Source: Candidatus Uhrbacteria bacterium (GTDB lineage Bacteria; Patescibacteriota; Patescibacteriia; UBA9934; GWF2-40-263). From it: 64,000 nucleotides of DNA. The position numbers and the translations under genes are program-made. Shown one piece after another: positions 2,956 through 49,843 of this stretch. Where the stretch lies: contig JAPLZK010000003.1 of NCBI GenBank assembly GCA_026395055.1, forward strand, positions 173,987 to 237,986, in the 5' to 3' direction. The notes below the pieces were generated by a model, which was not told the DNA's origin, did no database searches, and worked only from the letters and a program-made list of their open reading frames with translations. Every line of letters starts with the position of its first letter. Within the stretch, counting starts at the first letter, position 1.

Positions 2956-2967
2956 TATGAGTGCTAA
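2941..2967 (+). promoter_or_regulatory. CIRCE element (HrcA operator) TTAGCACTC-N9-GAGTGCTAA overlapping the clpB -10 and transcription start
   Basis: Perfect match to the canonical CIRCE inverted repeat at 2941..2949 and 2959..2967 with a 9-nt spacer. Confidence 0.85.
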
Positions 2968-3004
2968 TGTTTCAGGTTTCCAAAACAAAAACGAAAATAT
3001 TCTT

Positions 3005-5650
3005 ATGATGCCAAACAATTTCACGTTAAAATCTCAAGAAGCAATCCAGCGCGCACATAACATCGCTCTTGAAAATGGACAACCCGCGCTTGAACCCATT
3101 CACCTTCTTGTTTCTCTGCTCACCCAACAAGACGGAATCATTCCAACGATTGTAGACAAAATTACCACGCAAGAATCTAATCTTCGTCATGAACTTGATC
3201 ACATCCTCGAAACGTTACCGAAATCCCCTGCCCCACAAGCGGGTGGAGTTGGACAAATGTATTTGAGTCAACAGATGGCAGAAACATTATCAATGGCACA
3301 TAAGAAAGCAAAAGAGTTTAAGGATGATTTTATTTCCACAGAACATTTACTTCTTGCCCTCTTAACAAACAAGCCCGTTGAAAACCTCCTTGCCGGATAT
3401 GAGATCACAGAAGAATCCGTCATGCGCGCGCTCAAGGACATCCGTGGTGCACAACGCGTAGATTCTGCAGAGCCAGAAGCACGTTATCAGACTCTCGAAA
3501 AATACGGCTCTGATCTCACGGAAGCCGCCCGTCTTGGTGAGCTTGATCCGGTGATTGGTCGCGATACGGAGATTCGACGACTTATGCAGGTGCTCTCTCG
3601 ACGAACCAAGAACAACCCGGTCCTGATCGGAGAAGCTGGAGTTGGAAAGACCGCAATTGTTGAGGGTCTCGCACAACGCATCGCATCAGGCGATGTCCCA
3701 GAATTACTGAAGGACAAATCTATTTTCATGTTAGATGTCGGCGCACTCGTTGCGGGAACAAAGTTTCGTGGCGAGTTTGAGGAACGACTCAAGGCTGTTA
3801 TCAAAGAAATCGAAAGTTCAGGCGGAAAAATCATTCTGTTTATTGATGAATTGCACACACTCGTTGGAACAGGAACAACAGAAGGTGGAACAATGGATGC
3901 ATCGAATATGTTGAAGCCGGCACTTGCTCGAGGGAAACTGCGTGCCATTGGTGCAACAACATTAAAAGAGTATCAGCGCTATATCGAAAAAGACCCAGCG
4001 CTCGAACGCCGATTCCAACCGATCATTGTTGAAGAACCTTCTGTCGAGGACACAATCGCGATCCTTCGAGGAATCAAAGAAAAGTACGAAGCGCACCATG
4101 GTGTGCGTATTTCAGATCCTTCCCTCATCTCCGCTGCCGAGTTGTCCGATCGCTATATCACAGATCGAAACTTGCCCGATAAGGCCGTCGATCTTATGGA
4201 CGAAGCGGGTTCTGCGCTTCGTATGCAGATTGATTCGATGCCAGAAGAACTGGATGTTCTCAAGCGAGATCTTATGCGTCTTGAAATTGAAGAAAAGGCG
4301 TTGCAAAAAGAAGATGACAAAGAATCAAAGTCTCGTCTCAAGGAAATTGAGAAGCAGATTGCCGATCTTCGTGAACAAACAGAAGCATTCGAAGGGAGAT
4401 GGAGAAATGAAAAGGAAAAGATTACGCTTATTCGTGAGATTAAGTCTTCGATCGATCGTCTCAAGCTGCAAGCAGAGCAAGAGGAACGCAAAGGGAATCT
4501 CGAGAAAGTGGCGGAGATTCGTTATGCAAACTTGCCTGTCGAAGAAAAGAAGTTGAAAGCGGCTGAAGAAGCGCTTCGAAAAATTCAAAAAGAGCGCGGT
4601 CTTTTGAAAGAAGTCATTACCGAAGAAGATATCGCCACAGTCGTTTCAAGATGGACAAACATTCCCGTCTCGAAAATGCTCGAATCAGAAATGAAAAAAC
4701 TGACGCGCATGGAGGACGACCTTGCAAAGCGTGTTGTTGGACAAGCAGAAGCAATCACAGCCGTCTCAAACGCACTACGTCGATCACGTGCAGGCATTGG
4801 CGAAGAACATCGTCCAATCGGTTCGTTTATTTTCCTTGGACCAACAGGAGTTGGAAAAACGGAACTTGCTCGAGCACTCGCCGAGTTTATGTTCAATGAT
4901 GAGTCTGCCATGATTCGTCTCGACATGAGCGAATACATGGAGAAACATTCGACCTCCAAGATCATTGGTTCCCCACCAGGATACGTCGGTTACGAAGAAG
5001 GCGGACAGCTCACTGAACTTGTGCGACGTAAACCGTATTCCGTTTTGCTTTTCGACGAAATTGAGAAAGCACATCCAGATACATTCAACTTGCTTCTCCA
5101 AATTTTAGACGAAGGTCATTTAACGGATGCGAAAGGTCGCAAAGTAAACTTCAAGAATACGATTATCATCATGACATCCAACATTGGATCAGATCTGATT
5201 CTCAATGCTGGGTCCTCGATGAGCTCAATGGGCTTTCATGAAGAATCGGAGATTGAAGTTGGATCGGACAAAGAAATTCGCGAGACGATCATGGGATTGC
5301 TCAAGGATCATTTCCGTCCTGAGTTCTTAAACCGTGTAGACGAAACGATTGTCTTTCACGCGCTTCGACCAGAAGACATGGAGGCGATCGTTCAAATCCA
5401 ACTTGATCGTGTTGCGCTTCGACTCAAAACACAAAGACACATTGAACTTGTTGTATCAGATACTGCTCGAGCTTTCATTGCGAAACTCGGATACGACCCG
5501 TCATATGGCGCTCGACCGGTGAAACGCGTCATCCAAACGCAGATTCTTGATCCGCTCGCTCTCAAGATTGTTTCCGGCGATATCAAAGAAGGAAAACAAG
5601 TTGTGGTCGGAGTAAAACAAGATCAAATCGTGATCTTGACCAAGAAATAA
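3005..5650 (+). CDS. clpB: ATP-dependent chaperone ClpB (Hsp100 disaggregase)
   Basis: Two AAA+ modules ([18 protein letters not shown] and [15 protein letters not shown] Walker A motifs) with a coiled-coil middle domain. The start was chosen at [15 protein letters not shown] because the upstream ATG at 2957 lies inside the CIRCE operator and upstream of the predicted transcription start. Confidence 0.9.
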
Positions 5651-5658
5651 GGCACAAA

Positions 5659-5687
5659 ATAAGAGCAATATCGCTCTTATTTTGTTT
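5659..5687 (+). terminator. Rho-independent terminator after clpB (8-bp stem ATAAGAGC/GCTCTTAT, then TTTGTTT)
   Basis: Hairpin plus T-run read from the sequence. Confidence 0.6.
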
Positions 5688-5713
5688 GTCGAACAAGTCG
5701 ATTTACGCTATAC

Positions 5714-6733
5714 TTGAAGCTCATGCACAAGCTGTTTCCCCTCATAATTCTCGGCATTTTCCTCTCGACACTTCTCCCGTCGGCAGTTTTTGCCAACGAA
5801 CTTTCTGCGCCAAGTCCTGAGCATTTACTTTCGGATACGGACATGACGGATGTAAACGCAATGACGCGTGACGATATTCAGACGTTTCTCGCAAACGGTG
5901 TCCTTGGCAAATATCGAACACAGGACATACGAGGTGTTTCTCGAAGCGCGGCCGATATTATTGCGAATACTTCGAAAGAGTTTTCATTGAATCCTCGCGT
6001 CATCCTCGTCATTCTCCAAAAGGAACAAAGTCTCGTTGAGAACACGAAGGCTACACAGAAACAATTCGACTGGGCCATGGGCTTTGCCATCTGTGACGAT
6101 TGTTCAAAAGCAGATCCTCGATTACAAAAATATAAAGGCTTTGGCAAACAGGTTTATTACGCAACGCAACATATCCGAGAAGCGTATCTTTCAAAACTCA
6201 TCACAAATGGTGTGACGACAGCTGGATACGGTCCAGGAATTGAATCTATCATCGACGGTTCCGCGCTTGTCCCACAGAATAATGCAACCGCAGCGCTCTA
6301 TACCTACACGCCGCACATGCACGGGAACGTAAACTTCATGAATATTTGGAATCGATGGTTCACAAAATCATTTCCAGATGGAACATTGATACAGAGTCGG
6401 ACAAATGGGGCGGTCTGGCTCGTCCAAGATGGAAAGAAACGACCGATCATCTCGGAGGCTGTGCTTCGATCCCGATTCAATATAAACACAATCGTTCCAA
6501 CAAGTGTTTCTGTCATTGAGCAATATCCTGACGGCGCACCAATCGACTTTCCAAATTATTCACTGCTTCGAGCCCCGAATGGTTCTGTGTACTTGATCGT
6601 AGACAACGTGCGTCGTGGGTTTGTCTCCATGAATGCTCTTCATGAAGCGGGATTCGATATCACAGACTCAATCTCTGTCAAAGCAAAAGAACTTACACGC
6701 TATACAGAAGGCCCACTTATCTTTCCGACCTGA
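5714..6733 (+). CDS. Secreted hypothetical protein, possibly cell-wall associated
   Basis: N-terminal signal peptide (LFPLIILGIFLSTLLPSAVFA). The C-terminal part has short duplicated segments (WLVQDGKKRPI / YLIVDNVRRGF). No family was recognised with confidence. Confidence 0.55.
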   Translation: MKLMHKLFPLIILGIFLSTLLPSAVFANELSAPSPEHLLSDTDMTDVNAMTRDDIQTFLANGVLGKYRTQDIRGVSRSAADIIANTSKEFSLNPRVILVILQKEQSLVENTKATQKQFDWAMGFAICDDCSKADPRLQKYKGFGKQVYYATQHIREAYLSKLITNGVTTAGYGPGIESIIDGSALVPQNNATAALYTYTPHMHGNVNFMNIWNRWFTKSFPDGTLIQSRTNGAVWLVQDGKKRPIISEAVLRSRFNINTIVPTSVSVIEQYPDGAPIDFPNYSLLRAPNGSVYLIVDNVRRGFVSMNALHEAGFDITDSISVKAKELTRYTEGPLIFPT

Positions 6734-6735
6734 AT

Positions 6736-7530
6736 ATGATCACCTTCGCCGCGTTCACCCCACATTCCCCTCTCTTGCTTGAAACAATCGGTAAAGAGAA
6801 TACGAAAGCTTTGCAAGCTACACTAGACGCCATGCATCAGCTTTCCGAAGAACTTTACGCTTCTCGCCCAGAGGTGATTTTGACGATCTCTACACATCGC
6901 GGTGCACATAAAGATGCATTTTCCATCAACATGCATGATGAATATTTTGTGGACTTTCAGGAATTTGGAGATCACGGAACACAGGGAGAATTTGCGCCAG
7001 ACATTGAACTCATGACACAAATCCAACGTCGCATGCGCAATGAAACAATCCCATTTACACTCGACTCAGACGCGAGTCTTGATTATGGTGTTGGAATTCC
7101 ACTTACATTACTCGCAAAAACTCTTCCCATCACACACACCATCGTTCCAATCGCCTACAGTTTCCTTCCTTCAAAGTCACACGTTGAGTTCGGTCGTATT
7201 TTGAAAGATGTTTGTATGGCAAGTTCAAAGCGTATCGCCATCATTGCCTCGGGTGATCTCTCGCACACCCTCTCGAGTGACGCGCCCGCAGGCTTTCATC
7301 CGTCTGGTGAGGAAGTTGATACCGCGATTGTGAAGTCGATTGAGAACATGTCCCTCTCACAACTTCTCTCCATGGACGAAACAATGCTTGAAACTTCACA
7401 AGAATGTGCGCATCGCCCCCTTCTCATTTTATTTGGGATCCTTGAAAAAATGCCCGTTCGTCCAGAAATTTTGTCTTATGAACATCCGTTTGGTGTTGGA
7501 CAGCTCGTTACCCAATTCCATTTAAGCTGA
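6736..7530 (+). CDS. LigB/MEMO1-family (class III extradiol dioxygenase-like) protein
   Basis: 264 aa with the conserved His/Asp pattern of the AmmeMemoRadiSam system protein B / LigB fold (TISTHRGAH ... GDLSH). Confidence 0.5.
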   Translation: MITFAAFTPHSPLLLETIGKENTKALQATLDAMHQLSEELYASRPEVILTISTHRGAHKDAFSINMHDEYFVDFQEFGDHGTQGEFAPDIELMTQIQRRMRNETIPFTLDSDASLDYGVGIPLTLLAKTLPITHTIVPIAYSFLPSKSHVEFGRILKDVCMASSKRIAIIASGDLSHTLSSDAPAGFHPSGEEVDTAIVKSIENMSLSQLLSMDETMLETSQECAHRPLLILFGILEKMPVRPEILSYEHPFGVGQLVTQFHLS

Positions 7531-7533
7531 GGT

Positions 7534-9378
7534 ATGGTTGCAGAAGTGTATCCACTCATGCGCATGCCGCGACACGTAACCGTGTTCGACTACACGCTTC
7601 CCGAAGAACTTCATCACCTCAAGCGAGGTGATGTTGTTGTGATCCCCTTTCGTACCGCATCCATTTTTGGAATTATCTCACGCGTAAAAGATGTTCCGGA
7701 CAGAGGCTTTCGTATTAAACCCGTAACACGCCAAGATTCACGCATCACGTTTTCTGATACAGAACTTTCTTTCTTCGAAAATTTGGCGATCGAACTTGCA
7801 CAGTCTGTTGCATCTGTGTTGAACAGTTGTCTGCCTGAATTTCCAAAGCGCATCTCGACAAAGACCGTTCCAATCGCACCTAGTGAACCCTTAACGATCG
7901 CACCAAATGAACTTGATGGACTTCAGTCGATTGCCCAACAACTCACCGAACGCAGTCGTGCGTTTGCACATGTTTCGGATATTCGTCGCATGGCGTGTGT
8001 GATTGCCGGGTATCTTCGATTAAAACCGGACCAGAAGTGCATTGTGCTGTGTCCAACGATTCTTGATGCACAACGACTTTATTCGCACCTTCCACTCGAA
8101 ACACGCCTCCTCCTCACAGGCGAAGAGAATACAGGAACGCAATTCGCTGTTTGGAATGCATTTCGAAATGCGGAAGCGTGTGTGATGATTGGAACAAAGA
8201 ATGTTTTGTTTGCAACCGACTCGAAAACTACAACGATCTTCGTTGTACGCTCAAGCCACGAGAATCACGGACATCACGAACAGAATCCACGTTTTGATGC
8301 GCGTCTCGTGGCCGAGATGCTCGCAAACCACCATCATACGAATCTGTTCTTTCTCGACGCCATGCCGCGTATTGAGGACACGATTACCTTCTCAAAAACA
8401 AACATCATTGGAAATCCAACGAATCTTGTTCCACACATCATCGACATGGAGCACCAAAGTCGTGCGTCCGCAATTGGGCACTGGATCTCACATGAGACCT
8501 ATCAGGCAACGCAAGAATGTCTCGACATGAACGCACATGTTCTTGTTGTCCTGAATAAAAAATTTCACGCTCGTCGTTTAAGCTGTACATCATGTGCATC
8601 GGATGTTGTCTGTGAGACATGTGGCAACGGAATGATTCTCGACGATCTGTTGATGCGCTGTGTGCGATGCAAGTCTTCCGTTCCGATCATCCGATCATGT
8701 CCGAAGTGTCATGAGGCGACATTGAAAGAATCTGGGTTTGGAAATCAAAAGATTGATGCACTGCTCCAGAAGGAATTTCCGAATGTCTCGACATGCCTCA
8801 TCGACAAAGAACACCCAAACATGAATACGAAGGCATCGCTTGTTATTGCAACGTCATACTATCTCGAACAGATGGCAAATGCATTTAGACCCGATCAATT
8901 CGCTCTCGTTGTTCTCCTCGACGCAGACGCGCCCCTGTTTCGACCAACATACCGTGCATCCGAGGCTGCACTCTACGAATGTGAGGGTTGGCGCGCACTA
9001 GCATTTGCCAATCGTGCACAATTCTTTGTTCAAACGCGATCGGTTCCCTTCTTCACCGAGTACTTCGAGAATCCAACGAAGTCTCTCGAAATGGAACGCG
9101 ATGCACGCCGCTCCTACATCCAACCACCGTTCTGCGAGATCTCAACGCTCACATTCGAAGAACCAGAGCCACGCAAAGCAGACATCTTCCTAAATCAACT
9201 CGTACAACAAATTCGTGCTGTGTCGAGCATAGCGCGCATCAAAAAGAATAAAGTATCCGTTGGCGCAGAATACCTCCTCGAAGTCCGCTATCCGCGTGAA
9301 GATCGACCCAAACTTCTCCTATTATTCCGAAGCCTTCCAGATCGTGTTATCATTGACACACAAGCAAATACGGGCTAA
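7534..9378 (+). CDS. priA: Primosomal protein N' (PriA)-like, with degenerate helicase motifs
   Basis: N-terminal 3' DNA-binding domain (VFDYTLPE), the PriA helicase-core alignment, and a four-CxxC zinc-binding region (CTSC, CETC, CVRC, CPKC). Walker A is replaced by HVSDIRRMA and DEEH by RSSHE. Confidence 0.7.
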   Translation: MVAEVYPLMRMPRHVTVFDYTLPEELHHLKRGDVVVIPFRTASIFGIISRVKDVPDRGFRIKPVTRQDSRITFSDTELSFFENLAIELAQSVASVLNSCLPEFPKRISTKTVPIAPSEPLTIAPNELDGLQSIAQQLTERSRAFAHVSDIRRMACVIAGYLRLKPDQKCIVLCPTILDAQRLYSHLPLETRLLLTGEENTGTQFAVWNAFRNAEACVMIGTKNVLFATDSKTTTIFVVRSSHENHGHHEQNPRFDARLVAEMLANHHHTNLFFLDAMPRIEDTITFSKTNIIGNPTNLVPHIIDMEHQSRASAIGHWISHETYQATQECLDMNAHVLVVLNKKFHARRLSCTSCASDVVCETCGNGMILDDLLMRCVRCKSSVPIIRSCPKCHEATLKESGFGNQKIDALLQKEFPNVSTCLIDKEHPNMNTKASLVIATSYYLEQMANAFRPDQFALVVLLDADAPLFRPTYRASEAALYECEGWRALAFANRAQFFVQTRSVPFFTEYFENPTKSLEMERDARRSYIQPPFCEISTLTFEEPEPRKADIFLNQLVQQIRAVSSIARIKKNKVSVGAEYLLEVRYPREDRPKLLLLFRSLPDRVIIDTQANTG

Positions 9379-9390
9379 AATCCTCTACCT

Positions 9391-9867
9391 ATGACATCAA
9401 GAACAGTACTTACCTCACCAAACGCAGAGTTACGCGTTGTCTCAAAAGAATTCCCAAAAGCGGAATTTGGATCTGATGAAACAAAGACTCTGACACGCGA
9501 TTTGATTGAAACCATGCGTGTGGAAAATGGGATCGGCATCGCCGCGCCCCAAATTGGAGTACACAAGCGCATGATTATTGTAGATGTTGGCAACAACCAA
9601 CCTCAAGCGTTTTTCAATCCAAAAATTACGTCAAAATCGTTTACAAAAACAGAAAGCGAAGAAGGATGTCTCTCTGTGCCTGGCGTATTTGGAATTGTGA
9701 AACGTCACAGATCTGTCACCGTATCCGCACAAAATATGGAAGGCATCACACAGGTCTTCCGTGCGGAAGGTCTCATGGCAATTGTCTTTCAACATGAAAT
9801 TGATCACTTGGACGGCATTCTTTTTATAGACAAGGTTCTTCGTTACACTTCTCACCCAAAACTATGA
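9391..9867 (+). CDS. def: Peptide deformylase
   Basis: Motifs GIGIAAPQIG, EGCLSVPG and QHEIDHLDG. Confidence 0.9.
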   Translation: MTSRTVLTSPNAELRVVSKEFPKAEFGSDETKTLTRDLIETMRVENGIGIAAPQIGVHKRMIIVDVGNNQPQAFFNPKITSKSFTKTESEEGCLSVPGVFGIVKRHRSVTVSAQNMEGITQVFRAEGLMAIVFQHEIDHLDGILFIDKVLRYTSHPKL

Positions 9868-10820
9868 AGACACGCGTTGTCTATTTCGGTTCTCCGGAAT
9901 TATCGGTTCCTTTTTTATCCGCGCTCGTAAACGACACGGATTTTGATGTTGTAGCGGTTGTAACACAACCAGAGAAACCCGTTGGTCGAAAAGCGGTCAT
10001 GACAAAATCCGCCGTTCACGAATTCGCAATCACACATAATATTCCCGCACTTACTTACAAGTCATTACGATCGGATGAAGTTGTTACAGAACTCTCAAAG
10101 TTGGAGGCGGACATCTTTGTCGTGGTCGTCTACGGAAAGATTATTCCAAAGGCCGTTCTCGACATTCCAAAGTTTGGCTGCATCAACGTTCACCCATCAC
10201 TCCTTCCAAAGTACCGCGGTCCATCGCCATTTCAAGAAGCCATTCGTATGGGCGAGAACGTAACAGGTGTATCGATCATGCTTCTCGACGAAGGAATGGA
10301 TACGGGGCCCGTGCTTACAATGCATGAATTTCCAATTGATGAACGAGAGACCGGTGAAACGATTCAACCAAAAGTTGTTGCGATCGGCGTGCCGTTGCTT
10401 CTCGACGCACTCCGCAAATGGACAACGGCTGATCGTGTAGCAATTCCACAAGACGATGCGCTTGCAACCTATTCAAAAATGTTGTCGAAGGAAGATGGAA
10501 AGATCGATTGGTCTAAGTCCGCGCTCGAGATTGATCGTCAGGTGCGAGCATTTAAACCATGGCCAGGAACATATTTTATCTGGAACGAGGATGGAAAAGA
10601 TGTTCGTGTCGTTGTACACGAGACATTGCCACTCGAGAGTTCATCCGATCGAACTCCTGGAAGTGTCATCGAAGATACGGGCCGCATCATGATCGTTTGT
10701 GGAGACCATTCTCTTCTCGAACTTATTACAGTCCAACCGGAAGGCAAAAATAAAATGTCCTCGAACGAATATGTTCGAGGACATCAATCATTTTTAAAAA
10801 CAAACCTTATTTCGTCCTAG
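9864..10820 (+). CDS. fmt: Methionyl-tRNA formyltransferase
   Basis: Formyltransferase N-domain (NVHPSLLPKYRGPSP) plus C-terminal domain; ATGA overlap with def; conserved priA-def-fmt order. Confidence 0.9.
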   Translation: MKTRVVYFGSPELSVPFLSALVNDTDFDVVAVVTQPEKPVGRKAVMTKSAVHEFAITHNIPALTYKSLRSDEVVTELSKLEADIFVVVVYGKIIPKAVLDIPKFGCINVHPSLLPKYRGPSPFQEAIRMGENVTGVSIMLLDEGMDTGPVLTMHEFPIDERETGETIQPKVVAIGVPLLLDALRKWTTADRVAIPQDDALATYSKMLSKEDGKIDWSKSALEIDRQVRAFKPWPGTYFIWNEDGKDVRVVVHETLPLESSSDRTPGSVIEDTGRIMIVCGDHSLLELITVQPEGKNKMSSNEYVRGHQSFLKTNLISS

Positions 10821-20361: not shown

Positions 20362-22245
20362 TTACGTGAGAACAGCCTTGATTCTTCTGAGTCCAGATCC
20401 GATCGATTCTTCCTTCTGAATCTCAAATTTTCCTAGTTCGGCGGTGTTTGATACATGAGGCCCTCCACAAACCTCTTTTGAGAAGGCGTCTCCCATAGCT
20501 TCATCACCAACGAAATAGACTTTTACCTTATCTCCAACTTCTGCATACTTATCCGTAAATAGTCCGATTGCCCCTCGCGCTTTTGCTTCTTCAAGCGTCA
20601 GCATTTCGAAGTGAACCGGTAACTTCTTTGAAATTGCCTCATTAACCAGCCCTTCAACCTGTTTAATCTGATCATCCGTGAGTCTTTCTGGATACGGAAA
20701 GTCGAATCGGAGGCGTTCTGGGGTGATGTTGCTTCCCTTTTGGACGACCATATCACCAAGAACCTGTCTAAGCGACTGATGAAGTAAGTGAGTTGCTGTG
20801 TGGTATTTAACGCTCATTTCTGACGTATCTGCAAGACCACCCTTGAACTTCTGCTCTGAACCAGCTCGAGAAAGTGCTTGATGCTTTTCTTTTTCGACTT
20901 TAAACGTTTCCATATCGACCGTAAACCCATTCTCTGTCGCGAGCTCTTGTGTCAGCTCAACAGGAAACCCATAAGATTGAACGAGATCAAATGCATCCAT
21001 TCCTGATATCTGTTTATTACTTTCAACAGTCAGGAGCTCAACGAATTTCTTCATTCCCTGTTTCAACGTTTGTTGAAATTTCTTTTCCTCCTTCGCGAGC
21101 TCGGCAAGAACCCTATCTCGAGAAGATGCGAGATTCGGATATGCTTCCGAATAAGCTTCGATGAATGTTGCACCGATCTGAGCACAAACATCTTCTGTGA
21201 TATTCAGCCAATGTGCGAAACGAACGGAACGACGAATTAATCTACGTACAAAATATCCCTGATCTTTATTCGATGGATTAACACCATCACCAATAAGAAA
21301 TGTAGCAGCTCGAAGGTGATCCAAGATCACACGGAATTCATCCGTGTGTGTTTCGTAGGTTCTTCCACTGAGTTCTTCTAGCTTTTGAATAGCGGATTGA
21401 AAAACATCTACACGAAAAATATCTGGATCCCCATTCACCGCCGCGCACACACGTTCAAGTCCACCTCCAAAATCCACGTTTCTTTGTTTAAGCTCCTCAA
21501 AACCTGTTTCTGTCTTCACGTATTGCATGAACACATTGTTTCCAATTTCAACGAAACGCCCACAGTCACAGTTCACATGACATGGTTCGTTTTTCCAATT
21601 TGAAATTTCATGCAAGTTTCGTTCCGCACCAAAATCCCAAAACATTTCTGTGTCTGGACCACCGGGTTCTCCAACAGGCATGTTTGATGGCACGCCAGTT
21701 CTACTCCACCAGTTTTTTTTTTCTGGTTAATAAAAAATACGTTCACCAGATTTCATTCCGTCTTGTTCCACATTTTCACCAATCGCCGCATCAATCCCCT
21801 TTGACGCAAATAATTTTTGCCACAATGCTGCAGACTCTTCATCTCTGGGAATATTCAAATCCGTATTTCCTCGAAATACAGTCACATATAAATTCTTTGG
21901 ATCAAGTCCAAGATTCGTCGTCAAAAATTCAAACATCCATGTGATTTGCTCATTTTTGAAATAATCTCCAAGCGACCAGTTGCCGAGCATTTCAAAAAAC
22001 GTTGTGTGACGATTATCTCCCACTTCATCAATGTCTTGTGAACGAAAACATTTTTGAGAATCTGCAATACGAACACCACGAGGATGTGCCTCGCCGAGTA
22101 AATAAGAAACCATTGGTTGCATTCCGGATCCGGTAAAAAGGGTCGTTGGATCATTTTCAGGGATCAACAATGCGGATGGAAGAATGGCATGACCATGATC
22201 AGCAAAAAACTTCAGGTACTGTTCGCGAATTTCAGAAATCGTCAT
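20362..22245 (-). CDS. alaS: Alanine--tRNA ligase lacking the C-Ala domain; the reading frame is interrupted by one in-frame TAA (21727..21729) next to an A10 homopolymer
   Basis: The two ORF-track pieces (21727..22284 and 20362..21693) are in the same frame, separated by TAA plus 11 sense codons (PEKKNWWSRTG) that match the conserved AlaRS NFW-MGDTGPCGPC region. The catalytic and editing domains are present. The start was moved to MTISEIREQYLKFF at 22245. Confidence 0.75.
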
Positions 22246-22299
22246 AATGCGTGGATTGTACAAAGGAAAGAGATGAAAAGTCAAAAAGGAAAAAACCTT

Positions 22300-34788: not shown

Positions 34789-37293
34789 TCAATCGAATTT
34801 TACGCTTTGTCCTACGTGCAACTTTCCAGATGTTGGTTGTTCAGGTGATTTCTCTGCGGGTTTTTCTACTGGTACCTCGACCGGTTTCGTATCAGGCGGT
34901 GGCACAACAATAGGTTCTGTGACAATCGGAGCGTGTGGAACTTCAACCCTTGGCTCTTGTCGCTCTGGTCGTTTTTGTTCTTGAAGAGATTTTAAGGAAA
35001 TAGTTTGTCCGGTTTGTGATAGTTGTGTGGTGATTTCACGGCGAACTTCTTGTGCTCGTGTATCAGAAATACGTTCAGATGCTCGAGGTGTTCCAGGTGA
35101 ATGAGCACTGGACTGCGGAGATTCTAAGCCAGTTCCTGTTTTCTTTTTGCGTTTACGCTTGCGTTTGCGTTTTTCTCCTTCGAGGACGGGGGCAGCCGAA
35201 TGTGGCGCTTGAGGCTCATTCGTTGTTTGTGAAGGAACGCGCGACAAATTCCCCATCGGTCGAACGGGTGTTGTTATGGGCGGAGACACTTGACCCCGCG
35301 CTGGAACGAGCGGTTGCGATTGCGGCTTTGATTCTTGAGGAACTCGAATTACAGGTTCGCTAGGCGTGTTTACAACAACAGGTTTTTGTTCAACACGAAC
35401 AACAGGCACTGGAATAATTGGTGCCTCGACAACAAGTTTTGGTTCTGGTTGAACAGGAGTTGGTTGTGATAATTCTGGTTTTGGAACAGATTCGACGACA
35501 GGTTGCGGTTTTGGCGCAACAACCACGGGTTCGGATCTTCTTTGTTCCATTGGTTGCGCGGTTGCGACGGGTTTTTGTTCCGGAATCTTTTCGTTCATCT
35601 GAGGTTCCTCTACAACAACCACCTCTACAGGCTTTGGCATGAGTGTTGAAAGAGAAATGGTTGGTTCGTCTGGTAACTTATGATCTTCAACTTCCTGAAC
35701 TTCCGATGAACGCATCTCACGAGGAGATGCTTCTTTGACAGGAACCTTTGGTGGAAGATTGCGTGTATCTGCTGGCTTACCCCCCGTTTTTCCTCCACGA
35801 TTATTCTTTTCCTCACGCACAATCTCAATACAATCTTCACAGTAAATTGGACGTGAGCGATCAAGTTCTACAGGCAAAACCATTTTTTTGCCGCAACGCG
35901 AACAATCATATTCAAATTTTGGCTTCTTTGCGTCCTTTGCTGCCACCTTGTCTGTTTTCTTTTTTTCTTCCGCTTCTGCAAGCATGGTATCAACATCCAT
36001 GTTTCCCATTCCGCTCCACGTCAAAATTTGTTCTTCAATAAATCCACGTTCTTTTGCGTAACGTTCTCGAGAAACTTTAATGACACGCTCTTCTGAATCT
36101 GTCTTTTGAGAAATTGGCGGAAGCGTGATGGCAGAAAACGGCTGACTTGTTACTCCGTTGATGAGCAACTTTAAGTACACGTTATATTTTGGAAGATTGA
36201 TAATGTCTTCTGGTAAAAAACGTGGGGCAAATTCTGTTTCCATGTACTTTGCGTCCGGAGAACCCACACGAAACGAAATAATTGTTCCGACGTTACCAAA
36301 AACCGCTTCACGCACTTCATCTGTAAGCTGCGCAATGTACTGGTGAGCAATGGTTAAACACAAACGATACTTACGTGCCTCAGACAAAATCCCAGCAAAA
36401 GAATCCACAGCAAAGTTTTGGAACTCATCAACGTACAAGTAAAAGTCCATACGGTCTTTTTCTTGCATGTCTACACGTTCCATGGCGGACAATTGCAATT
36501 TCGTAATCAACAGTCCTCCAAGTAAACGAGAACTATCTTCTCCAATACGTCCCTTGGAAAGGTTAACGATGAAAATCTTTCCAGAGTCCATGATTTCACG
36601 AATGTTGATACTGGATTTCACCTGCGCAACAATGTTTCTGATCACAGAAGCAGACAAAAACTGTCCAATCTTGTTTTGGATTGGAGCCACAGCCTCCTGC
36701 GCGTATTTTTCATTATACGAAGCAAACTCTCTCAACCAGAATTGTTTCACCACAGGATCCGTCACATTCGAAACAATACGCTTGCGATAATCTGCATCTG
36801 ACAACATGCGGTTGATTCCAAGCAGCGTTGATCCTTGGTTATCAAGCAATGCGAGAATCGTGTTGTTCAAAATGTACTCCATACGGGACGACCATTGGTC
36901 TTCCCAAATCTTTTTGAAAACTCCCATCATTCCACTTGCGACCAAGTGTTTATGTCGTTCAGAGACGGCCTCCAGGATATTAAATCCAACCGGATATTCC
37001 GCGTCAGATGGATTGAAGTACACAACATCGTTAATGCGCCAGCTTGGAATGTAATTGATGAGCTTTTCTGCCGTGTCTCCGTGAGGATCCACGTAACAAC
37101 AACCGTGTCCTGCGTAAATATCAGAAAGGGTGAGGTTCTCAAGGAGAACCGTCTTTCCCATACCTGTTTTTCCAATCACATACACATGTCGACGGCGATC
37201 GTCGGTTTTGATTCCAAATTTCGTCATCGCATTTCGGAAGTTTGTCTTCGCAAAATAGTTGACCTCGTTTTCATGTTCGTGATTGTAGCCCAT
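34789..37293 (-). CDS. VirD4/TraD/HerA-like (FtsK-HerA superfamily, T4 coupling-protein-like) ATPase with a C-terminal zinc ribbon and a long disordered Pro/Val/Glu-rich tail
   Basis: Walker A VIGKTGMGKT, Walker B LYVDEFQNF, and a TrwB/TraD-like C-terminal AAD motif (VFGNVGTIISFRVGSPDAKYMETEF). Zinc ribbon CSRCGKK...CEDC at about aa 460-480. A tail of roughly 350 aa rich in P/V/E/K with a KRKRKRKRKKK run. Confidence 0.7.
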   Translation of the reverse strand: MGYNHEHENEVNYFAKTNFRNAMTKFGIKTDDRRRHVYVIGKTGMGKTVLLENLTLSDIYAGHGCCYVDPHGDTAEKLINYIPSWRINDVVYFNPSDAEYPVGFNILEAVSERHKHLVASGMMGVFKKIWEDQWSSRMEYILNNTILALLDNQGSTLLGINRMLSDADYRKRIVSNVTDPVVKQFWLREFASYNEKYAQEAVAPIQNKIGQFLSASVIRNIVAQVKSSINIREIMDSGKIFIVNLSKGRIGEDSSRLLGGLLITKLQLSAMERVDMQEKDRMDFYLYVDEFQNFAVDSFAGILSEARKYRLCLTIAHQYIAQLTDEVREAVFGNVGTIISFRVGSPDAKYMETEFAPRFLPEDIINLPKYNVYLKLLINGVTSQPFSAITLPPISQKTDSEERVIKVSRERYAKERGFIEEQILTWSGMGNMDVDTMLAEAEEKKKTDKVAAKDAKKPKFEYDCSRCGKKMVLPVELDRSRPIYCEDCIEIVREEKNNRGGKTGGKPADTRNLPPKVPVKEASPREMRSSEVQEVEDHKLPDEPTISLSTLMPKPVEVVVVEEPQMNEKIPEQKPVATAQPMEQRRSEPVVVAPKPQPVVESVPKPELSQPTPVQPEPKLVVEAPIIPVPVVRVEQKPVVVNTPSEPVIRVPQESKPQSQPLVPARGQVSPPITTPVRPMGNLSRVPSQTTNEPQAPHSAAPVLEGEKRKRKRKRKKKTGTGLESPQSSAHSPGTPRASERISDTRAQEVRREITTQLSQTGQTISLKSLQEQKRPERQEPRVEVPHAPIVTEPIVVPPPDTKPVEVPVEKPAEKSPEQPTSGKLHVGQSVKFD

Positions 37294-37308: not shown

Positions 37309-38934
37309 TCAAACAGGAAGATCAGGTGGGGTAAATAATTCTTCGTCAGATGCGTCTGCGGGAGACGTATCCCCGAAACGACCTTTTGGTAAAAAGGCCT
37401 CTGCGTCTTCATGTTCTATGTCTGTAGGTGCTTTCAAGTGTGGAAGTGTTTCCGGTAATGGTTCTTTTGAAGTGACATATGTTCCTGCAAGACGAGATTC
37501 CGCAGATTCGTGATGTTCCATTGGCATTCCGCCTGGAAGAGGAAATTCATTATCCCCCGCTCCAGGCAACGTGTTCTCCAAGAATGTTGTTGGCAATCCA
37601 ACAGGAGGTTCTGCACGACGTGCTTCTGATTTCTTGATGAGTGGAGCTTTGATACTGATCGTTGGAAAATGCCAAAGCGTTGCCAACTCTTCTGCATTCA
37701 AATAAACAGGATTCGCCCCAATTCCCCAACTGCGCCCTTGAAACGCCTTCATGAGGATTGTTTGTTTTTTTTCATAATCCCACTTCTGCCAGAAGTAATC
37801 ATCCTTTGGAACAGAGGGACCATGCATCTTAAATGAATTCAAGTTCAAGTGAGAATACTGGTTCAAAATTCCCTTAATGATGGTTACACGATCTCCTTTT
37901 TTATAAACTGCCTTTTGCGCGCAATACACAATACGAATCTTCACGGCATGTCCAACCTTTATGGTTTTCTTCATGATGGCCTTTGCTTCATCTTGTTGTG
38001 CGGGACCAAGTTTAAATGCTTTCCAGGGATCTGCTTCTTTTGTTGCTTCTGACGCCATTCCAAAAAATGGCGCGAGATCGATTTCCGTAGCGTGAGCAAT
38101 TAATTCAAATGGTAATTTAAAAACAGTTTGTGCTGCAGCAACAAGGTCATTCTTCTTTGCCGCCTTATCTTCAACACCGAACGTTTTGTTTACATGTGCG
38201 ATTCCCGCCTTTTTCCATTCATGACCGGTTGGCTGAATAACCATCTGAAACCAAAAATGCTCCCCCGGTTTCATTTTAGACATTTGTTCGAGCGTGTAAC
38301 CAAGAGGATCTTTAATTTCTCCTGTCATTTGGTCTTCAAAATCCACATACGTTCGAATGGGAAAATGAGATTCCTTGTCTAACGTAAATTCCGCACCCCA
38401 CATGTCATATTTCTCATCGGGAAAGAGTTTTGGAACTTTTGTGACGTAATCATCAACCTCATTCATTTCCGCATCAGGATACTGCGCGTAAATACCTGCC
38501 TCAATGACGTCTCGGAATTTTGCTTGTGTACGAATAATAAACTGCATGTACCCTTCTTCTGAAACAATTTCAAAAGAAAACGTTGGCATGATTTTTCCAT
38601 CAAACCATTTTTCCTTAAATGTAGGACTAGATTTTGCCGCGTACAGTGCCGCAAATAAGTTTTCAAGCGCCTTTGGGGTTTGTTCTGTCATGGACGGAAC
38701 GTCAACCGCAAGACAAATATATTTTTGTTTTGCCGCGAACACTCCTTGTCGTTCTGCAAGCCACAATTCTGAAAAACCCCACAGAAGTGTTGTGAGGACA
38801 GGGATCCAACCAAACCAGACCAAGAGATCAAAAAAAATGACATCAATCGGTTGATTGAGGAAAGAAAGTGAAATCATTGGGACAGATGATTGCGCGGATT
38901 GTTGGATGATCTGAATCGCAAGCATGGGAAACAT
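37309..38934 (-). CDS. Hypothetical membrane protein (N-terminal TM hairpin plus about 450-aa soluble domain and an acidic Pro-rich C-terminus), co-operonic with the VirD4-like ATPase
   Basis: TM segments (VIFFDLLVWFGWIPVLTTLLWGF); no recognisable domain; 15-nt gap to the ATPase gene. Confidence 0.55.
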   Translation of the reverse strand: MFPMLAIQIIQQSAQSSVPMISLSFLNQPIDVIFFDLLVWFGWIPVLTTLLWGFSELWLAERQGVFAAKQKYICLAVDVPSMTEQTPKALENLFAALYAAKSSPTFKEKWFDGKIMPTFSFEIVSEEGYMQFIIRTQAKFRDVIEAGIYAQYPDAEMNEVDDYVTKVPKLFPDEKYDMWGAEFTLDKESHFPIRTYVDFEDQMTGEIKDPLGYTLEQMSKMKPGEHFWFQMVIQPTGHEWKKAGIAHVNKTFGVEDKAAKKNDLVAAAQTVFKLPFELIAHATEIDLAPFFGMASEATKEADPWKAFKLGPAQQDEAKAIMKKTIKVGHAVKIRIVYCAQKAVYKKGDRVTIIKGILNQYSHLNLNSFKMHGPSVPKDDYFWQKWDYEKKQTILMKAFQGRSWGIGANPVYLNAEELATLWHFPTISIKAPLIKKSEARRAEPPVGLPTTFLENTLPGAGDNEFPLPGGMPMEHHESAESRLAGTYVTSKEPLPETLPHLKAPTDIEHEDAEAFLPKGRFGDTSPADASDEELFTPPDLPV

Positions 38935-39016: not shown

Positions 39017-39940
39017 TTATTTTTTCTTTCCTTTTATCCCCTCCCATGTCACAAGCGCAGGGCTTGCAAGGAAGATAGATGAATACGTTCCCGCAATGAT
39101 TCCTACGATAAGGGCAAGGGAGAACGGACGTGTTGTGTCTCCTCCAAAGAAGAAGATGGCGGTTAAACACAGCAAGGTTGTCATGGATGTGCTAATGGAA
39201 CGACGAATGGTCTGGCGAATACTGACATCAACCGTTGTTTCAAAAGATGGACTGATGTGTTTGAGCAAGTTTTCACGCGTACGATCAAACACCACAATCG
39301 TGTCTGTAATGGAATAACCAAGAACAGTCAGAATGGCCGCTACGAATGCGGTATCAACTTCCCAATTGAGAAACTTTCCAAGAATCGCGAAGACGCCGAG
39401 CGGCACGACAACGTCATGGAATGCGGTGATAATGGTGAGAACACCGTATTTCCATGAAGCAACAGGATGTGTCACTTTACGAAAGGTAAAGGCGACGTAA
39501 GAACCGATGAGCACAAGAATCAAAATGATTCCAAACGCCGCAGACTTTTGTAATTCCTTTCCAATGACTGGACCGATGGAATCAAATTTTTCTTCCGCTG
39601 TTTTGTCTCCGTATGTTTTCTTAAGATCAGACAACAATGCTTGGTGCTGTTCTTCATTTAAACTCTCAAGACGAATGAGCGCTCCGTTCGTGCTTGTTGA
39701 TTGAACAATGACATCATTATGACCAAGTTTTGCAACGTGGTCGCGCAATTCTGTTGTGACAACCGGTTTTTCAAAAGAAACTTCAAGCAAACTTCCTCCC
39801 GTAAAATCGATTCCGAGTTTTAAGCCGAACATTCCGATGGAAACCACACACACAAGCACAATCGCTCCTGAAATGGCGTACCAAAGTTTTCTGTATTTAA
39901 CAATATGGATTTGCATAGGATTATGACTTGTTATCTTCAT
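39017..39940 (-). CDS. secF: Protein translocase subunit SecF
   Basis: SecF signature (GIDFTGGSLLEV) and a 6-TM C-terminal half. Confidence 0.9.
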   Translation of the reverse strand: MKITSHNPMQIHIVKYRKLWYAISGAIVLVCVVSIGMFGLKLGIDFTGGSLLEVSFEKPVVTTELRDHVAKLGHNDVIVQSTSTNGALIRLESLNEEQHQALLSDLKKTYGDKTAEEKFDSIGPVIGKELQKSAAFGIILILVLIGSYVAFTFRKVTHPVASWKYGVLTIITAFHDVVVPLGVFAILGKFLNWEVDTAFVAAILTVLGYSITDTIVVFDRTRENLLKHISPSFETTVDVSIRQTIRRSISTSMTTLLCLTAIFFFGGDTTRPFSLALIVGIIAGTYSSIFLASPALVTWEGIKGKKK

Positions 39941-41999
39941 TTTTCTTTACACCAAAGAGAATTGGTTTGTGTGTCCACTTCCAACCAAAGACGGTATGGA
40001 GATATTGGCGCGCCACATAAATTGCCGTAAACAAACTGAGAACGACTCCAATTCCAAGGGTGAGGGCAAATCCACGAATAAAGCTTGAACTGAACCAGTA
40101 CAACACAACAGAAGAGATGAGTGTGGTGAAGTGACCGTCACGAATTGCAGCCCATGCACGTCGTTCTGCTTCATCTGCGGAGGAGATTAATCCTCTACCT
40201 GATGCGTATTCCTCTTTCAAACGTTCAATAATGAGAACGTTGGCATCAACCGCAATACCAAGAGACAAAACAAGTCCAGCAATACCTGCAAGCGTAATGG
40301 TTACTCCAAAGAGTCTGTACGCAAGCATATTCAATGAAGAGAACAGGAGCAACGCAACAATTGCAATCACACCTGGCAAACGATACATGCCGATCATGTA
40401 AATGGTGACGAGCAAGAATCCGATAAGCGCCGCCATGATACTTTTTTGCAACGAGACAGATCCAAGTGTTGGACCAACAGTTTGTTGTGAAAGCAAGGTG
40501 ACAGGAACAGGAAGCGCACCCGCATTTAAGCGTTGTGCCAAAATCTTTGCTTCATCAAGGGTGAAGTTTCCGGTAATAACCGCACGACCACCATAAATAG
40601 CTGCCTGAACAACAGGAGTTGAAATAGGAGAACCATCAAGAAAAATCGCGATTGGTTTTCCAACGTTTGCGGCAGTGAGTGTTCCAAACAGATCCCCTCC
40701 GTCTTTATCAAACGTGATTCCAACATAAGGATTTCCTGTCTTTTGATCAAATTCTACAACCGCGCTTTGCAATTGCTTTCCAGAAAGTTGTGTGTTTTTC
40801 CAAGGTGACGCTGGAGGCAAAACATCTGCCATGGTGGAAAGCTTCATCGCGATACGTTGAATCTTAAACGCTGGGATCACTTTTTGATCTTGCTTATAAA
40901 TCAAATGGTATCCGAAGTCTGTTTCGACAATATCTGAGATTTTTCCAACAGGAAGCGTTTCTGCAGCCGCTCCAAATGCTGGGACGTATTTATCTGCAGT
41001 TGCGTATCCAAGATCTCCACCATTTGTTGCAGCGCTAGGATCTGTAGAGTTTTTCTTTGCGAGGTCTGCAAAGTTTTGTGGGGTTGCTTCCTTCTTTAAA
41101 TTTGAAATTTGAATATTCGCGTCTATTGCGGACGTATCCTTTGAACATCCCTGCTTGCCCTTTGAACAAATCAAGATGTGCGAAAGATGCATGTTATTTG
41201 CGGTTGTATTTTCAAGCACTTTGAAAATTTCAATAGAACCACCAGATTCAACGGTTTTCCAAAATACAGATCCTGCTTTTGGTTTGTTTTGTGTAAGTGC
41301 TTTTGCGATTTCAGGATATTGGGCAGAATCAGAAGTAATTTTTGGCATTATACCTTTTGTGTCTGCCTTTGCAGCTTCTGTACTTACCTCCGCAACAAGC
41401 TTATCAAAATCTTCTCCTTTTTGTGCACGAAGCAAAACGGCTTGTGCGGCAGCACGGTCTGCCTTTTGCAACTCTGCAAGTTTTGTTTGATCTGCCGCTG
41501 TTGGTTTTGTATCTGTTTTTGATCCTTGTTCTTTAAATTCCAAAACAGGTGTTTCTCCAATTTGTTTAATGGCATCAGAAACATTCAACACACCCGCAAG
41601 TTCCACAATCACACGAGACACTCCGCCTGTTGATGTGGTTTGTACGAGCGGTTCAGAAACACCAAACGCGTTTACACGACGTTCAATCACATCACGAACA
41701 CCAGAAAGAGCGTTTGCGCGATCTTTTTCTGGGATCTCTTTCATGTCCGCAGAATAAACAAGGTGTGTTCCACCCTGCAAATCAAGTCCAAGACGATATG
41801 CATGTTCGTTAAGCACTGGCAAAGAAACGTGCGCTTTCGCTTTTACAAATCCGGCCGTTACATTCCACGCGTGTGGAAAATCATAAAATCCCGCAACAAG
41901 TGTTACGATCAAAAAAACAACGGTTGCAACTTTTGCTTTCCATGGTTTATGAACTTTCTGTGCGTTCTGAGACGTTCGTTTGGTTTTCCAAGTTTGCAT
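39921..41999 (-). CDS. secD: Protein translocase subunit SecD carrying a tandem parvulin-type (PpiC) PPIase insertion in its periplasmic P1 domain
   Basis: SecD N-terminus, P1 segments and 6-TM C-terminus. Inserted at about aa 158-372 are two parvulin-like units, the second with clear PpiC motifs (HLSHILI...NGGDLGYA...VPAF...FGYHLIYK). Confidence 0.85.
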   Translation of the reverse strand: MQTWKTKRTSQNAQKVHKPWKAKVATVVFLIVTLVAGFYDFPHAWNVTAGFVKAKAHVSLPVLNEHAYRLGLDLQGGTHLVYSADMKEIPEKDRANALSGVRDVIERRVNAFGVSEPLVQTTSTGGVSRVIVELAGVLNVSDAIKQIGETPVLEFKEQGSKTDTKPTAADQTKLAELQKADRAAAQAVLLRAQKGEDFDKLVAEVSTEAAKADTKGIMPKITSDSAQYPEIAKALTQNKPKAGSVFWKTVESGGSIEIFKVLENTTANNMHLSHILICSKGKQGCSKDTSAIDANIQISNLKKEATPQNFADLAKKNSTDPSAATNGGDLGYATADKYVPAFGAAAETLPVGKISDIVETDFGYHLIYKQDQKVIPAFKIQRIAMKLSTMADVLPPASPWKNTQLSGKQLQSAVVEFDQKTGNPYVGITFDKDGGDLFGTLTAANVGKPIAIFLDGSPISTPVVQAAIYGGRAVITGNFTLDEAKILAQRLNAGALPVPVTLLSQQTVGPTLGSVSLQKSIMAALIGFLLVTIYMIGMYRLPGVIAIVALLLFSSLNMLAYRLFGVTITLAGIAGLVLSLGIAVDANVLIIERLKEEYASGRGLISSADEAERRAWAAIRDGHFTTLISSVVLYWFSSSFIRGFALTLGIGVVLSLFTAIYVARQYLHTVFGWKWTHKPILFGVKKNEDNKS

Positions 42000-49726: not shown

Positions 49727-49843
49727 CAAGGAAACCTCCTGGCATGGGCAAGCAACATGCCCAGAGATCTTTTCAGAAAAAAATGAAATTGTCAATAGTT
49801 TAGATAAAAAAATCCTCCTTTCAGGTGAAAGAAGGAAGAGGTG

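Follow-up and report, generated by a model that had tools for sequence, protein, structure and literature searches.

A PriA homologue of Candidatus Uhrbacteria that lacks the ATP-binding motifs and is probably a fork-binding pseudohelicase

Can a PriA protein that has lost its ATP-binding motifs still serve the replication fork, and does Candidatus Uhrbacteria rely on such a protein? This question is raised by a 614-amino acid (aa) open reading frame (ORF) in a 64,000-nucleotide (nt) stretch of contig JAPLZK010000003.1 (assembly GCA_026395055.1, positions 173,987 to 237,986 of the forward strand), which is referred to here as the window. An earlier note on this DNA singled out positions 7960-8270, corresponding to residues 143-246 of the 614-aa ORF, and proposed that they belong to an ATPase-dead PriA that could still recognize forks. 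The analysis described below supports this proposal. The gene is probably a priA orthologue of Candidatus Uhrbacteria (Patescibacteria/candidate phyla radiation [CPR]) that has turned into a pseudohelicase, and its product is likely to be a hard-wired, ATPase-dead PriA that recognizes forks and brings in the replicative helicase. It has none of motifs I, II, V and VI, the modules for fork recognition are the best conserved parts of the protein, the predicted fold is that of PriA, the gene is under purifying selection and it lies in a priA-def-fmt context.

The window protein is a PriA homologue. It matches the PriA profile TIGR00595 with an E-value of 1.3e-36 and 126.2 bits, against a curated equivalog cutoff of 230.35. 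Every NCBIfam match of the protein is to a PriA model and lies under the cutoff, with models PRK05580 and PRK14873 far under theirs. PriA proteins of known structure in the PDB are matched with E-values of about 1e-22 (phmmer). The only Pfam domain found is PF17764 (3' DNA-binding domain [3'BD]; E-value: 4e-10), at residues 16-101; the Pfam helicase, cysteine-rich region (CRR; PriA_CRR) and C-terminal models have no above-threshold match in the protein. An AlphaFold2 (AF2) model built from a 16-sequence alignment has a full-length PriA fold (predicted local distance difference test [pLDDT] 88.6, predicted template modelling score [pTM] 0.87). In this model and in the Foldseek comparisons, the PriA architecture is present: the 3'BD, two RecA-like lobes, the CRR insert and the C-terminal domain (CTD). 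The nine best Foldseek matches in the PDB are all PriA chains, aligned over the full length with template modelling (TM) scores of 0.65-0.74 (0.71-0.74 for the E. coli and K. pneumoniae proteins), while the next families (Mfd, DEAD-box and RecG) score about 0.3. Identity as RecG or Mfd was rejected, as the RecG model gives 10 bits (E-value: 0.19) and the Mfd and RecG structures have TM scores of about 0.3. An assembly artefact is excluded, as an independent assembly (Logan SRR20698644) encodes exactly the same protein. Annotation of motor-less PriA proteins is inconsistent, and pipelines recognize them in part: the window protein is named 'hypothetical protein NTX72_03595' by NCBI, close relatives are named 'primosomal protein N'' by the Joint Genome Institute (JGI) and a Minisyncoccota homologue is named 'primosomal protein N' family DNA-binding protein' by NCBI.

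The ATP site has been replaced throughout. In MAFFT alignments, HVSDIRRMA aligns column for column with GVTGSGKTE of intact PriAs, as the earlier note had claimed for motif I (Walker A). This segment has neither a Gly-rich loop nor a GK[ST] string, and the AF2 model has a strand at residues 142-146, then a helix that begins at residue 150. The consensus of the clade at this position is [SP]D[IL][RK]R. The replacement of DEEH in motif II (Walker B) by VVRSSHE, claimed in the same note, is borne out by two methods. With MAFFT, VVRSSHE aligns column for column with (V)VDEEH(D), such that RSSH replaces DE(E/A)H and the Mg-binding Asp of Walker B is replaced by Arg239; with phmmer, IFVVRSSHEN (within IFVVRSSHENHGHHEQNPRFDAR) is placed opposite the motif II stretch of K. 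pneumoniae PriA (PDB 4NL4). Motif V has changed from GTQMxxKG to ATSYYLEQ at the aligned position, and motif VI from QVAGRAGR to CEGWRALA, with loss of the arginine finger.

When the motifs are marked against TIGR00595, the alignment of the window protein starts at profile position 24, past the P-loop, whereas an intact PriA aligns from position 1 and has its Walker A motif four residues in. The possibility that the motifs are displaced was rejected: searches of the whole protein with the patterns [AG]xxxxGK[ST], DE[EA][HG] and G[RK]AGR found no match, and no string resembling a P-loop or GRAGR occurs anywhere in it. The motifs are therefore lost. A few GK[ST] strings found in relatives were examined and are not P-loops ('LHGKT' in P0105, P0115 and others; 'AELxxGKS' in Actinomycetota); they sit at the 'LHS' position that follows motif Ia or ahead of the LVP motif. 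The protein also lacks the winged-helix domain that follows the 3'BD and precedes lobe 1 in intact PriAs, and has a gap of approximately 60-100 columns at this place in the alignment. The helicase core that flanks the motifs, described in the earlier note as clearly conserved, is so only in part, since the protein has neither motif V nor motif VI and no winged-helix domain. Given the missing P-loop, the Arg that replaces the Mg-binding Asp and the lack of an arginine finger, it is predicted that ATP is very unlikely to be bound or hydrolysed.

The elements that would contact DNA are retained. Conservation was calculated from 196 aligned family members, thinned to 166 at <70% mutual identity, which are 19-87% identical to the query. 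In the 3'BD, F18-D19-Y20 (nt 7585-7593) and K62 align with F16-D17-Y18 and K61 of E. coli PriA; the conservation values are 0.90 for F18, 0.87 for D19 and 0.99 for Y20, and G32, V35 and G46 are also among the most conserved residues. Asp17, Tyr18 and Lys61 of E. coli PriA form the pocket that recognizes the 3' end of the leading strand (PMC5778457). P174, in the motif Ia-like LCPT, has a conservation value of 0.98. The best-conserved segment of the family is NPRFDAR (residues 251-257), in the loop that follows motif II (N251 0.98, P252 1.00, R253 0.96, D255 0.88, R257 0.91), and the Arg-aromatic-x-x-Arg core of this loop is the strongest signature of the family. In the phmmer alignment, HEQNPRFDAR is opposite the corresponding loop of K. 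pneumoniae PriA (KQxxxxRYxAR type), and it is the predicted DNA-contact loop. The aromatic-rich loop after motif II of E. coli PriA crosslinks to the fork junction (PMC5175346). The His-rich string HENHGHHEQ was considered as a new metal site and rejected: it is a local variation, as the wider family has NHKQxDRNPRFDAR at this position, which is the ordinary PriA 'YKQ...RYxAR' loop.

The conservation of the 3'BD and of four CxxC pairs, both stated in the earlier note, is confirmed. All eight cysteines of the CRR are present (C351/354, C360/363, C376/379 and C389/392) and are invariant or nearly so, each with a value of 0.88-0.92 among the 166 relatives; they are the predicted Zn ligands. Also conserved among these relatives are G220-T221 in lobe 1 and T440, D465 and Q500-T501 in lobe 2. 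CRR deletions are found in L020, L026 and L027 (about 551-558 aa), in P0054, P0056 and P0062 and in others; not a single CxxC occurs in 12 long sequences.

One genome from each GTDB species was scanned, which gave 46 related loci. Of these, one (L047, from Eubacteriales) has an intact PriA. Three have broken or truncated ORFs (L005, L028 and L042) and were excluded from the motif alignment, and all the remaining ones lack Walker A. Apart from L047, the loci come from Uhrbacteria, Magasanikbacteria and unclassified Patescibacteria. Several third-party annotation (TPA) records of metagenome-assembled genomes (L004, L007-L009, L013, L020, L024 and others) are titled 'uncultured Gammaproteobacteria bacterium'; they carry Uhrbacteria-type loci with the same synteny and the labels look wrong. 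When 1.84 billion representative proteins were searched with a profile, the best 150 clusters (50% identity) all lacked Walker A and motif VI, and the degenerate state is common to at least 166 non-redundant relatives. Two deep-branching members keep remnants of motif II (DEAH in L046, with the sequence IIIDEAHS, and a DEH-like remnant in L044, with MHDEHADE) and have neither Walker A/P-loop nor motif VI. Because these remnants persist without a P-loop, the comparison suggests that the ATP site decayed stepwise after an initial loss of ATP binding.

The gene appears to be maintained by selection. Compared with its 87%-identical orthologue in Ca. Uhrbacteria RIFCSPLOWO2_01_FULL_47_17 (L002), the ratio of nonsynonymous to synonymous substitution rates (dN/dS) is 0.064, an approximate value as dS is saturated at about 1.3. 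In the same comparison, dN is 0.009 in the former ATP-motif segments and 0.084 gene-wide. In the close clade, eight residues (D149, R152, S240, H245, G246, H248, E445 and W486) show little or no variation; L029-L046 have unrelated sequences at motifs I and VI. Thus, of what the earlier note asked about relatives, the degenerate state holds family-wide and the particular replacement residues hold in the close clade, varying across the wider family.

A mechanism that would account for these features can be proposed. The window protein most likely acts as a static, ATP-independent and structure-specific adaptor. In this scheme, the nascent leading strand would be held by its 3' end in the 3'BD pocket (D19, Y20 and K62), and the fork junction and the lagging-strand template would be bound by the lobe surfaces together with the NPRFDAR loop. 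The face formed by the CRR and CTD, or else the lobes, would recruit DnaB, either directly as in Deinococcus or via a loader or the SSB protein (which binds single-stranded DNA), leading to replication restart. Conservation of the replacement residues within the clade ([SP]D[IL][RK]R, RS[SG]H, YxxE and WRxxA) suggests that they pack or latch the old cleft. The replacement residues of the Uhrbacteria clade may lock both RecA lobes permanently in an 'engaged' state.

Several observations weigh against this reading. Gly37, a residue of the E. coli pocket, corresponds to Arg40 in the window protein. The CRR is needed in E. coli for helicase coupling and PriB binding, and about 9% of the 166 family members lack the whole CRR, such that this region can be no universal recruitment surface. 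In E. coli, the PriA-PriC pathway needs helicase activity and PriB binding is linked to the CRR (PMC5778457). The lack of ATPase activity, the fork binding, the helicase recruitment and the status as sole PriA are each inferred, and the search for a second priA covered the 64-kb window and the ±6 kb flanks of related loci.

Alternatively, the protein could be a scaffold in which the old ATP cleft has acquired a new, selected role, such as an inter-lobe latch that keeps the protein in its DNA-bound conformation or a new ligand or metal site, and its task might then differ from restart (for example, helicase loading at initiation). The slow change of the replaced segments and the near-invariance of the eight residues listed above are what this explanation would predict, and the essential PriA of Mycobacterium tuberculosis is called a 'helicase loader' in a review of replication in that species (PMC5694481). 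However, the replacement residues are conserved in the closer clade only, which fits structural packing better than a shared active site, and a new role of this kind is considered unlikely.

The favoured reading, a motor-less PriA that works as the PriA of its host, also depends on the number of priA genes. The earlier note had called for a search for a second copy, and none was found in the regions covered: tblastn searches of the 64-kb window with four intact and three degenerate PriAs matched 7534-9378 only, and in each of the 46 related loci, with flanks of ±6 kb, the queries matched only one gene. The gene order ClpB / unknown / Memo-like / priA-like / def / fmt recurs in the loci of 45 GTDB species. 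In 45 of 47 loci the Memo-like gene lies upstream of the priA-like gene, mostly directly adjacent, and downstream def is present in nearly all related loci with downstream sequence and fmt in most. Adjacency to def-fmt is a common context of priA in many bacteria. The conserved cluster spans positions 2957-10820 of the window and is held from 87% to about 23% PriA identity (L002-L046); its unlabelled member (5714-6733) encodes a protein with an N-terminal hydrophobic segment.

If the gene were a subfunctionalized paralogue, the genome should encode another PriA that is intact and hydrolyses ATP, and the window copy would be an accessory DNA-binding factor. The 64 kb analysed are part of a source contig of 367,614 bp, and intact PriAs do occur in the same metagenome-derived databases (P0023-P0035). 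Against this, the priA slot before def-fmt is occupied by the degenerate gene in all 45 related species loci with no second match in the window or in any flank, the degenerate state extends over 23-87% identity and more than 150 clusters, which indicates long-term stability, and annotators name proteins of related lineages primosomal protein N'. Patescibacteria genomes are small, making retained paralogues less likely. This explanation is therefore quite improbable. The coordinates of the priA-like gene, its parts and its neighbours are listed in the table.

Table. Positions in the 64-kb window of the priA-like gene, its lost and retained elements, and the adjacent genes
Feature	Position (nt)	Strand	Evidence or remarks
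LigB/Memo-like gene, ending 3 nt before the priA start	6736..7530	+	Pfam, synteny
priA-like gene, probable PriA pseudohelicase, 614 aa	7534..9378	+	ORF, TIGR00595, PDB matches, AF2/Foldseek
3' DNA-binding domain core, residues 16-101	7579..7836	+	PF17764, E=4e-10
Short linker in place of the winged-helix domain, about residues 106-122 (~17 residues)	7849..7899	+	Alignment gap
Former motif I (Walker A) position, HVSDIRRMA, residues 146-154	7969-7995	+	Alignments
Motif Ia-like LCPT (P174), retained	8047..8058	+	LVPEI at the aligned position in intact PriAs
Former motif II (Walker B, DEEH) position, VVRSSHE, residues 237-243	8242-8262	+	phmmer, alignments
Loop after motif II (equivalent of the aromatic-rich loop/motif IIa), NHGHHEQNPRFDAR, retained	8263..8304	+	phmmer, conservation
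Cysteine-rich region with 8 Cys in four CxxC pairs, presumed sites of two Zn	8578..8715	+	Alignments
Former motif V region, LVIATSYYLEQMANAFR	8839..8889	+	Alignments; T440 alone kept, QMxxKG gone
Former motif VI region, LYECEGWRALAFANRAQFFVQTR	8971..9039	+	Alignments; GRAGR gone, family hallmark QT (500-501) kept
C-terminal domain, conserved E521, R525, P531-P532	9049..9375	+	phmmer, conservation, full-length structural alignment
def (peptide deformylase), starting 12 nt past the priA stop	9391..9867	+	Pfam, synteny
fmt (methionyl-tRNA formyltransferase), 4-nt overlap with def	9864..10820	+	Pfam, synteny

Less probable still is a cryptic enzyme that binds or hydrolyses nucleoside triphosphates (NTPs) through non-canonical residues. 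The first Arg of GRAGR is matched by R487, R151 and R152 are basic residues at the old P-loop position, and the literature mentions that E. coli PriA may have a second site for nucleotides, a weaker one. Such an activity would have to operate with no Gly-rich loop, no Lys-Thr/Ser, no acidic Walker B pair (Asp is Arg239 here) and neither motif V nor motif VI. A single Lys to Arg change is enough to kill the ATPase of E. coli PriA and the Deinococcus PriA is inactive with milder changes. Decay to a non-functional pseudogene on its way to being lost, to which the missing catalytic motifs, the missing domain and the NCBI name 'hypothetical protein' might point, was rejected as scarcely credible given the intact 614-codon frame, the low dN/dS, the confidently predicted fold, the length and synteny kept in 45 species and the strong conservation of elements outside the ATP site.

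Beyond the priA cluster, a few other features of the window may be recorded. An alanyl-tRNA synthetase gene (20362-22284, minus strand) is divided into two same-frame ORFs by one in-frame TAA (stop at 21727-21729; ...GERIFY*PEKKNWW...), which is immediately before an A10 run. The ORF at 21727-22284 matches tRNA-synt_2c positions 1-140 and that at 20362-21693 matches positions 159-447 as well as SAD. The division may be explained by a sequencing error or nonsense variant, by readthrough or by an essential gene that is truly split. A SecD homologue of 692 aa (39921-41999, minus strand) has a PPIC-type rotamase domain inserted at about residues 257-372, between the P1 subdomains. Residues 27-342 of an 834-aa protein (34789-37293, minus strand) match type IV secretion coupling proteins of the TrwB/VirD4 type, and the neighbouring 541-aa ORF (37309-38934) has no Pfam match. 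Two adjacent large proteins composed of Dictyostelium-type CTDC repeats are encoded at 48122-51388 (minus strand), at the start of a stretch of higher GC content (0.49-0.50 over 48-60 kb of the window, 0.41-0.47 elsewhere).

The Uhrbacteria-type family is one of several PriA groups without a recognizable motor. All 119 Parcubacteria/Paceibacteria-type homologues checked (Zambryskibacteria and Minisyncoccia) are without motifs I, II and VI. They resemble the window protein in belonging to Patescibacteria, in the loss of motifs I, II and VI and in having PF17764 as the only detectable domain, and differ from it in their replacement sequences (LQ[AS][ND]DEERY and E[KN]ESSR) and in being only about 20% (19-23%) identical to it. 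In Actinomycetota, a PRK14873-type protein (P0036) and 119 relatives lack Walker A, DEEH and GRAGR and have VWDDADSSH or VDDGDESH instead. These 'primosome assembly protein PriA' sequences (e.g. NF011453) share with the window protein a length of about 600-650 aa, the lack of an insert the size of a winged-helix domain and PF17764 as sole detectable domain; they form a separate lineage, with NF011453 giving the window protein 76 bits against a cutoff of 812. UniProt is understood to flag actinobacterial PriA as lacking detectable helicase domains. The mycobacterial PriA literature that was examined does not mention the loss of motifs.

In hidden Markov model (HMM) comparisons between the groups, no degenerate group has a better score with the other degenerate groups than with intact PriAs. 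A shared origin of the Uhrbacteria-type family with the Parcubacteria-type or Actinomycetota-type proteins is not supported by these scores. As the degenerate groups show no special affinity for one another, which is consistent with separate origins but is no proof of them, the losses in the three groups are probably independent. It is a finely balanced question whether motor-less PriA, instead of being peculiar to Deinococcus, is the rule across entire major radiations that have no intact paralogue, having arisen through independent losses in at least two Patescibacteria classes (the Uhrbacteria/Magasanikbacteria type and the Parcubacteria type) and in Actinomycetota. If it is, the core function of PriA would be ATP-independent fork recognition and helicase recruitment, and its helicase activity an accessory that has been discarded repeatedly. 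A motor-less PriA that is widespread and has evolved more than once would revise a textbook-level statement, and the name 'hypothetical' given by NCBI marks a gap in annotation. Such proteins would also be natural minimal PriAs, in which it could be asked what restart demands of PriA without ATP and which surfaces recruit DnaB without known PriB, DnaT or PriC.

The relationship of the window protein to canonical PriA (4NL4, 6DGD and 8FAK) is clear from the shared 3'BD, two RecA-like lobes, post-motif-II loop, 8-Cys CRR and CTD. It differs from these proteins in its low identity (about 20%) and in the absence of the winged-helix domain and of motifs I, II, V and VI. The second-best Foldseek match is 6DCR, an E. 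coli PriA with a winged-helix deletion, in which, as in the window protein, the 3'BD leads straight into the helicase core; that protein is an engineered construct and has an active ATPase site.

That PriA can function without ATP hydrolysis is known from E. coli. The K230R and K230A/D variants are dead as ATPases, helicases and translocases and keep primosome assembly in vitro, and the priA300 allele (K230R), though ATPase-dead, is near wild type in vivo and restart-active in vitro (PMC5778457). The earlier note had taken helicase activity to be dispensable for restart in E. coli, which priA300 supports in general but which fails for the PriA-PriC pathway. The K230 variants are engineered point mutants that keep the other motifs, the winged-helix domain and the partners PriB and DnaT, and that fail in the PriA-PriC pathway, whereas the Uhrbacteria protein is natural and extensively remodelled. 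A literature search found no paper linking PriA with Patescibacteria or CPR.

The nearest precedent is the PriA 'pseudohelicase' of Deinococcus radiodurans, which has no ATPase or helicase activity and binds single-stranded DNA, forks and DnaB (Lopper, Boone & Morrow 2015, PMC4504706). Experiments on a naturally motor-less PriA have so far been confined to Deinococcus. Its motifs I and II are non-consensus, a trait common to the Deinococcus-Thermus phylum (PMC4504706), and a 2017 review in Nucleic Acids Research describes PriA helicase activity as conserved 'except in Deinococcus'. Both proteins are of clear PriA descent and have lost the catalytic residues of motifs I and II. In Deinococcus-Thermus, the Walker A change is from Lys to Arg in GKT, whereas in Uhrbacteria the P-loop, DEEH and motifs V and VI are all replaced and the winged-helix domain is gone; this contrast is drawn from the published description of the former and from the sequence and model of the latter. 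As the two belong to different phyla, the loss in Uhrbacteria is presumably independent of that in Deinococcus. A loss of all ATP motifs and the winged-helix domain, in some members with the zinc region too, is much more radical, and hundreds of Patescibacteria lineages have it as a fixed state under purifying selection, with a parallel in Actinomycetota. A naturally ATPase-dead PriA has thus already been published, and the Uhrbacteria family is a new and more extreme lineage of PriA pseudohelicase.

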